This document shows positions 15,370 to 22,878 of a stretch of DNA of 64,000 nucleotides, in pieces. The DNA lies in IMG/VR virus record IMGVR_UViG_2654587772_000002; one strand, written 5' to 3'. The number at the start of each line of letters is the position of its first letter. Position 1 is the stretch's first letter. This stretch comes from a virus. Lineage: Duplodnaviria; Heunggongvirae; Uroviricota; Caudoviricetes. The notes beneath the pieces were generated by a model. The model did no database searches. It had not been told where the DNA came from and was given only the letters and a program-made list of their open reading frames with translations. The position numbers and the translations under genes were made by a program.

Positions 15370-16152
15370 TTAAAGCTTTTCAAGATAATCAGCCAAGCCT
15401 TTCGCATTATCGGCATAGTATTTTGTTGCATTTACTATTATTGACTCATAATACGATTTGCATTCTTTCTTCCATGGAGTGCACGAATTTATTTTTTCCA
15501 TATCGTTTTTATTTTTAGAAATACCAACAAGCATAATGTACCCGATAAATCTTGTTGTCAACGCGCCAATCGGTAGCGTTCTATTCTCGGCTACTGTCTT
15601 TATTAAATTATCTTTATATTGAGGAATGAAATAGTTACCAACATATTCCAGATTTGCTTCAATAGGATTAAGATAGAATGAGCAATACTGAAAAGTGGGA
15701 ATTTGTCTAAATTTAACACCAGAACATAATGAATAAATTTCTTGTTCTTTTGTTAGTTCTTTTACTATGTGACTGTTGTCAGTCGTATCTTCTAATCTTA
15801 TATAGTTCAAAGACGATTTTGCTTGTCCTGGGCTTACAAGCTCAATAACAGGATGCCCATTAGACAATGTTATTCTTTCGATCTTACCCCGAATTCTAGA
15901 AGTTTGACTCCATTCATCTAAGGCTGCTATTTCATTTTTCTTGAATGAATCAACAATATCTGATGGCAAGCTAAAAACAGTAGCTTTCGTATTCATAGTA
16001 TATGCAAGCGAAGCAGATACCATATAGTTTCTGACTAAATTATAGTCCTTCTCGGAAACAGAATACTCATTAGGAATAGCTATTGAATTTGCAAATGAAT
16101 AGCTGCTAACAAAAGCAAACGGCAACAATAGTTTAAACATTAATTTTTTCAC
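15370..16152 (-). CDS. secreted hypothetical protein (moron)
   Basis: 260 aa; signal peptide MKKLMFKLLLPFAFVSSYSFA; AT-rich coding sequence unlike its neighbours. Confidence 0.55.
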   Translation of the reverse strand: MKKLMFKLLLPFAFVSSYSFANSIAIPNEYSVSEKDYNLVRNYMVSASLAYTMNTKATVFSLPSDIVDSFKKNEIAALDEWSQTSRIRGKIERITLSNGHPVIELVSPGQAKSSLNYIRLEDTTDNSHIVKELTKEQEIYSLCSGVKFRQIPTFQYCSFYLNPIEANLEYVGNYFIPQYKDNLIKTVAENRTLPIGALTTRFIGYIMLVGISKNKNDMEKINSCTPWKKECKSYYESIIVNATKYYADNAKGLADYLEKL

Positions 16153-16181
16153 TTATCACTATCCTTCGAATATCTTTACAT

Positions 16182-16818
16182 TTAAAGCCCGTCTTTGCAG
16201 AGACTAGTTGCTGTAGCGGTAAGTTGTGAAACAGGAATGTTAGGGCTGTCCCGTTTCATTAGAGCTAACTTAGTTTCAACACATTTTTTTATTCCTGGGG
16301 TCAAATTATCAGTATCATTTGCATCAGCACTCCCTAAAGCCCTCCGCTCAAGCGCACCTTGAGTATTTTGAGTGCGCATGCCACGCGCATTCAGAAATTG
16401 TTCGCTATTTATATAGCTACTTAAAGATTTTCCCTGATCTTCTTTGCGAATTTTTCCATTAGCCACTAATACAGCCCAACTAGGAATCATCATATCTGGT
16501 GCAGTTTCACAATACGCTACCATCTGATTAAAAGCCGAACGGTTATATTCATTAAGATTAGGATTAAGAAATTTCGAATAATACATTTTTGCAGCATCAT
16601 CTGTCGCAACCTTATACATTTCTTGCTGAACCATTGCTTCAGACAAACTTAAGCGCGTCATATCATTCTGGAGAGCTTTTTTCATCTTGCCGTCTTGACT
16701 GACAGTGAAACCGTAAACGTGCCCAAGGTATTTCGTGTAGTCGGTACAAATCTCCTTTACACTTGATGCTGCATTAACAGTCCCAGTCATAAATAATAAC
16801 GGTAGTAATAGTTTTCTC
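16182..16818 (-). CDS. secreted hypothetical protein (moron)
   Basis: signal peptide MRKLLLPLLFMTGTVNA from the internal ATG; AT-rich; Cys-containing. Confidence 0.55.
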
Positions 16819-16915
16819 ATTATAACCTCACCTGCCTTATAACTCATTTAGGGTACATATTTTCGCCTTTAAAAAAAGAGGTTATTAGATCCAATTGTGC
16901 ATTCATTAAACAAGC

Positions 16916-16932
16916 AATGCTCTAATAAATTT
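16916..16932 (+). promoter_or_regulatory. C1-repressor-operator-like site (AATGCTCTAATAAATTT)
   Basis: matches the 17-bp P1 C1 operator consensus ATTGCTCTAATAAATTT with one mismatch; lies upstream of the antirepressor region. Confidence 0.45.
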
Positions 16933-17246
16933 GTATTTTTAAGTCACGAATGCTATCTTTGCGCATCATATTGACCTTTTAATCGTTCAGGCTTATATTT
17001 CCGCTGTCGTAGCAAATTCTGCGACCGGGTTTAGCAGCCTGAATGATTGTGCGGACAGCCGCAGATATCCGATATTGCGGTATTTTTGTGTCCGTAAAAC
17101 CGCGTTACGCCCAAATTATGGTGGGGCGTGATGGGGAGGCTTCGGCCTGCTGGTTTCACAATCGCCAGTCTGCTAACCCCGTCACGTCCTGCCACCTGTT
17201 TAGCAGCGGGTAGCAGGTTGTTAAACCTGATTGTGAGGCCGTAACT

Positions 17247-17468
17247 ATGGTTAATGCCAATCCTTGCGCACGCCCAGAATTCATCTGGCGTTTCTATTCC
17301 TGTAAAAAACACCACTATCACTTCGTTATCGCAGCAACTGAAGACGAAGCACGCTCTCAATTGCCTGATGGCCCCTGCATTTTTACTGCCCGTTTTTCAA
17401 CTAACTCGCGCAATTCACTTAGTTACTGGAACCTCCCCTTCTCTGCCGACGTTCAGGGGGGTTTATGA
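17247..17468 (+). CDS. small protein overlapping the antirepressor start (icd-like position)
   Basis: 73-aa ORF ending in a 4-nt overlap with the ant start; assignment is by position only. Confidence 0.3.
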   Translation: MVNANPCARPEFIWRFYSCKKHHYHFVIAATEDEARSQLPDGPCIFTARFSTNSRNSLSYWNLPFSADVQGGL

Positions 17469-18856
17469 AAAAACCTCTCGTCACCCGTAATGAAATAGCC
17501 GAAGCGATCGCCCTGCATACAACCTGTATGCCGACACGGGAGATCCCCGGCGCAATTGCCAACTATTTCATGATAACCAGGCGTTTTTATACCCGAACAG
17601 ATAAGGCTGTGATCAACAAGCTACTGATAGCCGAGATCAGGGATTATTTGATTGAACAAGGACGTCTACGTTACGCAACAGTGGCAGCAGAAATGAGAAA
17701 GGAGGCACATAGAATGACCGGTAATAATTTAAATGTTGAAAAAACAGTACCTGTTACGTCAGCTACGCCAGCACCAGCCGTGAATGTCATCCCCAACACC
17801 GGAGACACAATCGACAGCCAAACATTGTTGAAGATGGTCAATGAGGCACGTAAGTTATGTGGAGAACCAGAGGTTAGAAACAATAAATTCATCGAAAAAA
17901 TACTCGATGAACTTGAAGGTGAATTTTACACAAAAAGTGCAAAATCCCATGGCACAAGGGCCGGGCGCTCTTTTGAGGTCATAACCATGACCTATAAACA
18001 AGCCCTGCGAGTCGCCGCACGCGAATCAAAAGCGGTCCGCCGTTCGCTACATACCATGATTCAGTCATTGGAACCTATAAATGTAGAAAATCAGCCTGAT
18101 GAAATTCCCGTTCTGGAATGGCAGGGAGTACGCGTCGTGACAACCGAGACTCTTGCTAGAGGGTATGGCACTACACCTATTCGTATTCAGCAGAACTACA
18201 ATCGCAATGAAGAACGATTTGTAGAGGGTAAACACTTCTTTAAAATCAAAGGAGATGAGATAAAAAGTTTGCGACTATCTTTTAGCGAGTTGCAAATTTC
18301 CCCCAAGACCAGATCCTTAATACTCTGGACCGAACGCGGAGCGGCACGCATGTCTAAGATCGTAGACACAGAGCAAGCGTGGGCATTCTTTGAAAAACTG
18401 GAAGACAGCTACTTCCGGCAAAAAGAACAGCAACCGGTCACAATCCCCCAAACATTACCAGAAGCTCTACGCCTGGCTGCCGAGTTGGCAGAGCAGAAAA
18501 TGCAGTTGGAACAACAGCTGGTGGCCGCAGCCCCTAAAGTAGATTTTGCCGACCGGGTATCAGTGGCTAATGGAATCCTGATCGGGAACTTTGCAAAGGT
18601 CGTTGGACTTAAGCAAAACGCCCTTTTCTCATGGTTGCGCCAGAACGGCATTCTCATGGCTTTTGGTGCGCGCAAAAACGTACCGCGCCAGCAGTACATT
18701 AACGCCGGGTATTTCACGGTGAAAGAAGTGGTGCTGGATGATGAAAATGGCTACCAGATACGGCTGACGCCCCAATTAACGGGTAAAGGCCAGCAGTGGT
18801 TAACTCGCAAGCTACTTGATGCTGGTTTGTTAAAACCAGTGGCGTCCTTGTCTTAA
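17465..18856 (+). CDS. ant: phage antirepressor (ORF6N-type N domain plus KilAC C-terminal domain)
   Basis: 463 aa; C-terminal APKVDFADRVSVANGILIGNFAKVVGL...GYFTVKEV block typical of KilAC antirepressors. Confidence 0.75.
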   Translation: MKKPLVTRNEIAEAIALHTTCMPTREIPGAIANYFMITRRFYTRTDKAVINKLLIAEIRDYLIEQGRLRYATVAAEMRKEAHRMTGNNLNVEKTVPVTSATPAPAVNVIPNTGDTIDSQTLLKMVNEARKLCGEPEVRNNKFIEKILDELEGEFYTKSAKSHGTRAGRSFEVITMTYKQALRVAARESKAVRRSLHTMIQSLEPINVENQPDEIPVLEWQGVRVVTTETLARGYGTTPIRIQQNYNRNEERFVEGKHFFKIKGDEIKSLRLSFSELQISPKTRSLILWTERGAARMSKIVDTEQAWAFFEKLEDSYFRQKEQQPVTIPQTLPEALRLAAELAEQKMQLEQQLVAAAPKVDFADRVSVANGILIGNFAKVVGLKQNALFSWLRQNGILMAFGARKNVPRQQYINAGYFTVKEVVLDDENGYQIRLTPQLTGKGQQWLTRKLLDAGLLKPVASLS

Positions 18857-19409: not shown

Positions 19410-19426
19410 TTTGCTCTAATAAATTT
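19410..19426 (+). promoter_or_regulatory. C1-repressor-operator-like site (TTTGCTCTAATAAATTT)
   Basis: consensus-like motif 70 nt upstream of the KilA-N gene. Confidence 0.45.
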
Positions 19427-19495: not shown

Positions 19496-20344
19496 ATGCA
19501 ACAAACATTCAATGCGGATATGAATATATCAAACCTTCATCAAAATGTCGATCCTTCAACCACCCTGCCTGTTATTTGTGGTGTTGAAATTACGACCGAC
19601 CGCGCTGGCCGTTATAACCTTAATGCTCTACACAGAGCGAGCGGACTCGGTGCCCATAAAGCGCCAGCTCAATGGCTAAGAACGCTCTCAGCTAAACAGC
19701 TCATCGAAGAGCTTGAAAAAGAAACTATGCAGAATTGCATAGTTTCGTTCGAAGGCCGTGGCGGCGGCACTTTTGCCCATGAATTGCTCGCAGTGGAGTA
19801 CGCTGGTTGGATTTCTCCCGCGTTTCGGCTGAAGGTAAACCAGACATTTATCGACTATCGAGCTGGAAGATTACAACCTGCTATTCCGAAGAGCCTCCCA
19901 GAAGCTCTCCGTTTGGCTGCCGACCTGGCAGAGCAAAAGCAACGGCTGGAGCAAAAAATGCTGATGGATGCACCTAAAGTCGAATTCGCCGAACGCGTTG
20001 CTACCGCCAGCGGGGTTCTAATCGGCAACTATGCCAAAGTGCTCGGCCTGGGCCAAAACTATCTCTTCACCTGGTTGCGTGATAACGGAATTCTGATCGC
20101 AACCGGTGAACGCAGGAACGTCCCCAAACAAGAATACATATCCCGTGGGTATTTCACCCTTAAAGAAACCGTGATCGATACAAGCAATGGAAGCAGGATT
20201 TCTTTCACGACTCGTATAACCGGCAAAGGTCAGCAGTGGCTGATGAAGCGATTGCTTGATGCTGGTGTGCTGGTGTGCTGGTACCTGTCGCGGCAACGCG
20301 CTAACAGACGTAGTAAGAACCACCAGCATTGTAATGCTGGCTAA
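19496..20344 (+). CDS. kilA: KilA-N domain protein with KilAC C-terminal domain
   Basis: 282 aa; N-terminal KilA-N-like region; C-terminal block paralogous to the C-terminus of the 463-aa antirepressor. Confidence 0.65.
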   Translation: MQQTFNADMNISNLHQNVDPSTTLPVICGVEITTDRAGRYNLNALHRASGLGAHKAPAQWLRTLSAKQLIEELEKETMQNCIVSFEGRGGGTFAHELLAVEYAGWISPAFRLKVNQTFIDYRAGRLQPAIPKSLPEALRLAADLAEQKQRLEQKMLMDAPKVEFAERVATASGVLIGNYAKVLGLGQNYLFTWLRDNGILIATGERRNVPKQEYISRGYFTLKETVIDTSNGSRISFTTRITGKGQQWLMKRLLDAGVLVCWYLSRQRANRRSKNHQHCNAG

Positions 20345-22098: not shown

Positions 22099-22280
22099 TA
22101 CACCCGCTGCGGTGTGCTTGGGGCTATCAGCTTCAGGTATTACCCGAAAAGCAGATAGAAGAAAGCCCCAGTAAACATTATGCGTCCCGCACAACGCTTA
22201 ACATTAACCGGGGCCATACCTATGCTTAGCGTACTTAGATTAATCCTCTCCTCTGTCAAGGAGCAAGGAATTTTTTACTG

Positions 22281-22878
22281 CTATGCCGCCTTTCCAGTTA
22301 TGGATTCTGCGACAAGAACAACCCCATGCTTACTTCGATCCGGATGTTCACTCCATATCTCGGATTCAGGAATACTTTCCCCGTCATAGCAAACACGTTC
22401 GCCATCAAATGGGTAATACTGAGCAGTATCGGTGTCCAGGATAAAAACTTTTAGTTCGGAAGAACGACGAGCGATGTGCTGCCAAAGAGCTTTTCCACCT
22501 TCGTATTGCTCATTATCACTGAGCAAAACAACACCAGCTTTTGAGGCTACGGTTTCGTAAACAAAAGTGGCTAAACCGACATCCCGGACGATTCCATCAA
22601 CCACGATACCTTCAATCTGGGCAACATCGCTATCCTCCCAGAACTTCCTTACCAGTACGCCTTCAAGCTGCGGGCGACGTTGAAGTTCAAGAGTAGCGAC
22701 AACCTTATGCCGCATATCACCATCGATAACAGAAGGCGCAGCCTCTATTACAGCTGCAAATGGGGTTTTGGAATCCCATATAACCTGGTAAAGCACACCC
22801 TGGATGGTAACGCCGTCCAGGATCGAAAATCGACGAGCGACAGTACCCGGGGAGTACGACATTGGAATCACAGCCATT
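22281..22878 (-). CDS. hypothetical protein
   Basis: about 199 aa from the internal ATG (MAVIPMSY...); no confident domain. Confidence 0.4.

Follow-up and report, generated by a model that had tools for sequence, protein, structure and literature searches.

A very probable P7-type immI region, with C4 antisense RNA, icd and ant1, in a phage-plasmid of the P1 family

The stretch of DNA analysed here, 64,000 nucleotides long and hereafter called the window, carries within and on either side of positions 16933–17468 a C1 operator, two promoters, a structured leader, the gene for an antisense RNA with its target sites, the icd gene and the start of ant1, all on the plus strand. The sequence-only reading of this segment had likened it to the c4–icd–ant layout of P1 immI, and the likeness extends to the DNA itself. 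Alignment of the window with the annotated records of P1 (NC_005856) and P7 (NC_050152 / AF503408), by which features were transferred, has shown that every annotated P1 immI feature maps onto the window without gaps, and that 16933–17468 is identical to P7 at 530 of 536 positions (98.9%) and to P1 at 511 of 536 (95.3%). In a BLASTN search of phage genomes with 16850–17500, P1 matches along the whole query at 95.2% identity and P7 matches from 16918 on at 98.8%, and both matches land on the annotated c4–icd–ant1 region.

The C1 operator Op51 (Oc4), AATGCTCTAATAAATTT, occupies 16916–16932 (+), directly before 16933, where an operator-like site had been claimed; it matches the operator consensus with one mismatch and is identical to the annotated P1 operator. 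The promoter P51a (P2c4), placed at 16930–16959 (+) by transfer of the P1 annotation, has its −35 element TTTGTAT at 16930–16936 and its −10 element TATCTT at 16954–16959, both of which are the same in P1, P7 and the window. Since P51a overlaps Op51, it is expected to be repressible by C1. The second promoter, P51b (P1c4), lies at 16971–16999 (+), with TTGACC (16971–16976) and TATATT (16994–16999) separated by a 17-nt spacer. It is the sole sigma-70-like site that a promoter scan detects in 16800–17800, with agreement at 10 of 12 positions, and it coincides with the P1 annotation. According to the P1 record and literature, P51b is the operator-independent promoter of P1 immI that supplies the C4 precursor.

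Matches to the C1-operator consensus number nine in the window, against 0.23 expected by chance. One of them, TTTGCTCTAATAAATTT at 19410–19426, lies upstream of a 282-aa ORF with KilA-N and KilAC domains (19496–20344), and the counterparts of this operator and ORF in the lytic replicon region of P1 are Op53 and kilA. Seven further matches, at 35494, 40039/40050, 49993, 53617/53666 and 55758, include two close inverted pairs. Taken together, the nine matches confirm the presence of a predicted P1-type C1 regulon in the window.

Between the operator and the small ORF lie 314 nt (16933–17246), in line with the earlier figure of about 300 nt. The description of this spacer as GC-rich does not hold for the spacer overall, which has 49.4% GC against 47.6% for the window, but it holds locally, with 53.8% in the leader and C4 together (17000–17246) and 64.9% in C4 (17120–17196). 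An Rfam scan of the whole window at curated gathering thresholds, the kind of search that had been put forward as a check on the idea of an antisense RNA, places the C4 antisense RNA (RF01695) at 17114–17199 (+) with 69.6 bits, where the gathering score is 45, full-length over model positions 1–87, and the c4-a1b1 motif (RF03163, "a1, b1 targets of C4") at 16993–17045 (+) with 53.4 bits against 46.7, so that both the antisense RNA proposed for this stretch and its upstream target motif are recognised. The mature C4 RNA, 77 nt long, corresponds to 17120–17196 (+) and is identical to the annotated P7 c4 RNA. In P1 and P7, C4 is known as a 77-nt RNA that RNase P cleavage yields from a longer precursor, and the title of Hartmann et al. 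(1995, cited in PMC4919922) presents the C4 precursor as an RNase P substrate. C4 is the ant repressor and the basis of the heteroimmunity of P1 and P7 (PMC12197685; PMC8198154).

The expectation that the spacer would be prone to structure is borne out by C4, for which the minimum free energy structure and the centroid structure coincide at −44.9 kcal/mol (z = −5.7), with none of 200 shuffled sequences folding as stably. The fold consists of a long closing stem and two inner hairpins, and leaves unpaired a loop and a junction, namely the b′ loop, UUCACAAUC, at 17155–17163 (+) and the a′ segment, CUGCUAA, at 17170–17176 (+). One more Rfam match on C4, to mir-1231 with 20.6 bits and E = 0.43, was put down to chance.

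Each of the two unpaired segments of C4 has one perfectly complementary site upstream and one downstream of the RNA. The a′ segment is complementary to TTAGCAG at a1 (17031–17037) and again at a2 (17200–17206) in the icd–ant mRNA, and the complement of the b′ loop, GATTGTG(A), recurs at b1, GATTGTGC (17045–17052), seven bases of which (17045–17051) pair perfectly, and at b2, GATTGTGA (17229–17236), all of these sites being on the plus strand. Thus, the search for complementarity between the candidate RNA and the ant leader, which had been suggested as a second check, yields perfect matches of 7–8 nt at a2 and b2 as well as at a1 and b1. The b2 site overlaps the icd Shine–Dalgarno sequence GAGG (17234–17237), the end of which is 9 nt before the ATG. 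The arrangement of one upstream and one downstream site for each unpaired C4 segment is found in the window, P1, P7, D6 and the lambdoid element Stx2a_1447, with four different site sequences among them; in Stx2a_1447 the site sequences are others, and yet both C4 segments are still complementary to sites up- and downstream. In the lambdoid element ECO95, a′ has matches on both sides, and the b′ loop has a match of at least 7 nt downstream only. These concerted changes of the sites across relatives provide direct evidence for pairing between C4 and its targets.

The leader that precedes C4 is itself structured. Folding of 17006–17087 yields, in order, a hairpin (17006–17025, +), a second hairpin that presents a1 in its loop (17026–17041, +), the single-stranded b1 site, a terminator-like hairpin and a U-run. 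The pairing of the first hairpin is kept by two-sided changes at three of its seven pairs in lambdoid homologues. The terminator-like hairpin (CCGCAG...UUGCGG, followed by UAUUUUUG; 17058–17088, +) has a stem (CCGC/GCGG) and a T-run that are conserved in P1, D6 and the lambdoid homologues, with loops that vary; a simple terminator scan missed it because its stem is bulged. The same scan reported a lone weak site inside icd, at 17274–17288, a number of sites that corresponds to chance frequency.

The small ORF at 17247–17468 (+) encodes 73 amino acids and overlaps the start of the antirepressor gene by 4 nt at an ATGA (17465–17468), exactly as had been described. The proposal that it is division-inhibitor-like is supported by identity and by family, since its product differs by one residue from P1 Icd and by one residue from P7 Icd, and matches NCBIfam NF033153 ("host cell division inhibitor Icd-like") with 52.7 bits against a cut-off of 25 (E = 3.3e-14) over residues 12–51; a Pfam search of the protein gave no match. 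A 2025 study has shown that P1 Icd targets FtsZ and inhibits FtsZ-ring formation, with residues 12–51 as the active core (PMC11897509), and the span of the NF033153 match equals this FtsZ-targeting core. The product is therefore identified as Icd, a predicted inhibitor of cell division. The Icd of phage D6 is 56% identical, the 3′ half of D6 icd having diverged. A note in the P1 record states that icd is "apparently required for expression of ant".

The antirepressor gene ant1 extends from 17465 to 18856 (+) and encodes 463 amino acids, assigned by a KilAC domain and by similarity to P1 Ant1. Mapping of the P1 annotation places the in-frame internal start of ant2 at 17714 (+), an ATG preceded by AAGGAGG. 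Residues 1–195 share 92% identity with P1 Ant1, the C-terminal part with the KilAC domain shares 85%, and between the two lies an extra in-frame ORF6N domain of about 115 aa (PF10543, residues 216–299; DNA about 18050–18420). P1 Ant1, in contrast, has 347 aa and no ORF6N domain, and the ant1 annotated in the P7 record is 1047 nt long. The insertion is absent from all 22 phage records that match ant1, P7 included. Ant1 with the ORF6N domain occurs in about 200 P1-like plasmids and so is not novel; the insertion means that the stoichiometry or the partners of the antirepressor could differ from those in P1 and P7.

Among the ORFs between the operator and ant, the longest is on the opposite strand (17031–17360, −; 109 aa, TTG start), and it stays open in the window, in P7 and in Ro157c2. 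It had been called probably spurious, and comparison of P1, P7, D6 and Ro157c2 justifies that judgement. In D6 the frame is interrupted by internal stops and a frameshift, and in P1 a 1-nt deletion at 17096, a difference from the window, shifts its C-terminal third, whereas C4 and icd are conserved where the minus-strand frame breaks. The ORF has no Pfam or NCBIfam match, and because it is fully antisense to a structured RNA of 65% GC, chance open frames are favoured. The notion that it is a real protein-coding gene is thus so improbable that the ORF was rejected as a gene; it is a frame left open by chance opposite a structured, GC-rich RNA, and it forms no part of the system.

The a′ and b′ segments and their targets determine which of the known immunity types the window resembles. 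C4, a1, b1, a2 and b2 show zero differences from P7. From P1 the segment differs at 25 positions, 12 of which are dinucleotide swaps in the six sites a′, b′, a1, b1, a2 and b2, with complementarity kept throughout; in P1, a′ reads CTGTCAA and b′ reads CACTAAC, and the targets match them, but this P1-type specificity is not found in the window, where a′ is CTGCTAA and b′ is CACAATC, again with targets to match. D6 resembles the window, at 85% DNA identity, in its leader, in the scaffold of C4 and in icd, but its a-specificity is that of P1 and its b-specificity is a third one (b′ CGTAAGT; b1 and b2 ACTTACG), altered at all three sites together; its antirepressor also differs, being described as similar to the Roi protein of HK97. 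Hence, the element carries P7-type immI specificity, and since a′, b′ and the four targets are those of P7, immI immunity to P7-type phages and heteroimmunity towards P1 are to be expected.

In its non-coding part, the region differs from P7 by only three substitutions, at 16961 between the promoters, at 16998 in the −10 element of P51b (TATATT against TATAGT in P1 and P7) and at 17005 beside the predicted transcription start. Changes of this kind in the promoters and at the leader start could mark a decayed immI remnant, or one of the virulent, de-repressed type in which ant is no longer regulated, all the more as P1vir has been reported with substitutions in the P2c4 promoter and near a C4 binding site (PMC8198154; the text of that paper does not give the positions of the P1vir immI mutations). 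Such a remnant is nevertheless very unlikely. The antisense RNA and its four target sites match P7 throughout, icd and ant are intact ORFs, the operator is that of P1, the TATATT variant is present in D6 as well, and the same arrangement is widespread among P1-like plasmids.

These comparisons leave little doubt that 16933–17468 is the immI region (C4 antisense RNA, icd and ant) of a phage-plasmid of the P1/P7 family (Punavirus) with the specificity of P7. The window is a P1-family phage-plasmid, and its immI is a system already known, a near-identical copy of that of P7 and thus a textbook antisense-RNA immunity circuit. Beyond mere resemblance, it is an orthologue of immI, and its specificity is that of P7 and not that of P1. 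The immI region of P1 (Op51–P51a/b–c4–icd–ant1/2) agrees with it in architecture feature for feature. The P7 region shares operator position, promoters and the ATGA overlap, but differs from the window upstream of 16918, at the three promoter and leader-start bases, in Ant1 and in the upstream cargo genes.

Upstream of 16918, the first two bases of the operator included, the DNA agrees with P1 and not with P7. P1 homology sets in again in the intergenic DNA beside the operator and reaches at least to 16850, and homology to P7 begins at 16918, so the region is mosaic. Farther upstream, at 15370–16847 (−), two genes with 35.7% GC and signal-peptide-like N-termini stand in place of P1 simABC. One encodes a 260-aa protein with 33% identity to P1 SimC, and the other a secreted-looking protein of 221 aa with 64% identity to a hypothetical protein of phage Ro157c2YLVW; this cargo is unlike that of both P1 (simABC) and P7.

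Other RNA genes of the window lie farther away. With 62.3 bits against 59, an Rfam match to the sok antitoxin RNA at 22112–22285 suggests a hok/sok-type module, and the approximately 600 bp around it are common to the P1-like phages SJ46 and RCS47, the reference P1 record being absent among the matches listed (8 of 11). The Rfam scan also detects three tRNA genes, at 40725–40797, 40803–40875 and 42403–42475, all on the plus strand. P1-family phages carry tRNA genes.

A C1 operator on P51a, an operator-free P51b, the complementarity of C4 to its targets, a b2 site over the icd ribosome-binding site and ATGA coupling of icd to ant1 are read directly from the sequence of the region. On the basis of work on P1 and P7, these elements would act together as follows. 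In the lysogen, C1 would shut off P51a through Op51, and P51b would go on supplying the C4 precursor, from which C4 would be released by RNase P and 3′ trimming. C4 would then pair with a2 and b2, and thereby the translation of icd would be blocked. Because expression of ant depends on translation of icd (P1 record note; PMC8198154), no Ant1 or Ant2 would be made and C1 would stay active. The dependence of ant on icd would involve both translational coupling and Rho-dependent termination in untranslated icd. A Rho-dependent polarity step in untranslated icd is said to have been described by Biere, Citron and Schuster in 1992. When C4 is outrun or mismatched, as with an incoming heteroimmune genome, Icd would block FtsZ-ring formation and Ant would inactivate C1.

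The position of the terminator-like hairpin, conserved with its T-run directly 3′ of a1 and b1, raises the question of whether C4 acts mainly by terminating transcription in its own leader, as N15 CA or P4 CI would. Pairing of C4 with a1 and b1 would then cause termination at 17058–17088, so that the operon would be switched off, and C4 autoregulated, upstream of c4 and not through icd translation. Several comparisons agree with this idea. The P1 record labels a1 and b1 merely as "putative" targets. The leader resembles the terminated, Hfq-binding Salmonella sRNA IsrK: the match of 17006–17087 to isrK (RF01394) begins at the predicted P51b transcription start (17006) and scores 43.7 bits in a local search (E = 6.8e-8), below the threshold of 50. 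In the lambdoid homologues, isrK and C4 occur side by side. In Stx2a_1447 an isrK match of 67 bits, above the threshold, is followed after 25 nt by a C4 match of 83.6 bits (the pair being at L005 1437–1625), with an antirepressor region downstream, and in ECO95 isrK likewise precedes C4, about 30 nt separating the two.

The immA region of N15 and phiKO2 (cA RNA–icd–antA–antB) is like immI in that a small processed RNA precedes icd and the antirepressor genes. Its DNA resembles that of the C4 module, at about 70–73% identity, over part of the module only, and its antirepressor genes differ from those of immI. The putative leader terminator annotated in phiKO2 is estimated to lie at the position equivalent to 17058–17088 and is a further point in favour of termination in the leader; the estimate comes from projecting the phiKO2 BLAST match proportionally onto Stx2a_1447, not from aligning the sequences directly. 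Ravin et al. reportedly found in 1999 that the CA RNA of N15 acts through transcription termination.

Other features of the region weigh against leader termination as the principal mode of C4 action. The b2 site sits exactly on the Shine–Dalgarno sequence of icd, and a2 and b2 co-vary with C4 as strictly as a1 and b1 do. Since C4 lies downstream of the 17058–17088 hairpin, read-through must be frequent. In addition, the P1 literature credits a2 and b2 with repression (P1 record; PMC12197685). That C4 works mainly by terminating its leader is accordingly improbable, and termination driven by C4 is more likely to be an additional layer than the main mechanism, which would remain the block of icd translation through a2 and b2.

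The resemblance to IsrK extends beyond the score. At the isrK–orf45–anrP locus of Gifsy-1 and lambdoid Stx phages, IsrK has the order hairpin, hairpin, single strand and terminator, as in the leader of the window. For this locus a processed RNA, about 80 nt long and with complementarity to IsrK, has been described, and the small ORF is coupled to the antirepressor gene through an AUGA overlap (PMC4825925). The relationship between the leader and isrK is one of architecture and evolution, not of curated membership. IsrK itself is described not as a target of C4 but as an activator that works in trans on its own read-through mRNA. The 2016 IsrK paper draws its comparison with P4 CI rather than with P1 C4 (PMC4825925), and in a 2025 review IsrK and c4 are separate entries (PMC12197685), so that the link between IsrK and C4 is explicit in neither of the two. 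No short leader transcript of P1-type elements was found in the literature.

Taken as a whole, the comparison suggests that the IsrK locus resembles a C4-type module, a lead rather than a result. A more far-reaching proposal can be put forward, although it is rather unlikely to be correct. Some P51b transcripts may stop at 17058–17088 and give rise to an IsrK-like RNA of about 80 nt, running from 17006 to about 17087, that contains a1 and b1; this RNA might serve as a decoy titrating C4, or pairing of C4 with a1 and b1 might modulate termination. In the same proposal, IsrK–orf45–AnrP of Gifsy-1 and the lambdoid phages and immI of P1 and P7 would be one module family, in which the orf45/STnc1160 RNA would be a homologue of C4 and not a peptide gene.

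The practical value of the present analysis lies in annotation, because the non-coding C4 gene and the C4 target sites now have fixed coordinates in a place where automatic annotation tends to put a spurious minus-strand ORF instead of the C4 gene. The leader architecture shared with IsrK may help to unify two literatures. For the element itself, immI allows the type of superinfection immunity to be predicted, and this type would be P7-like and heteroimmune to P1.
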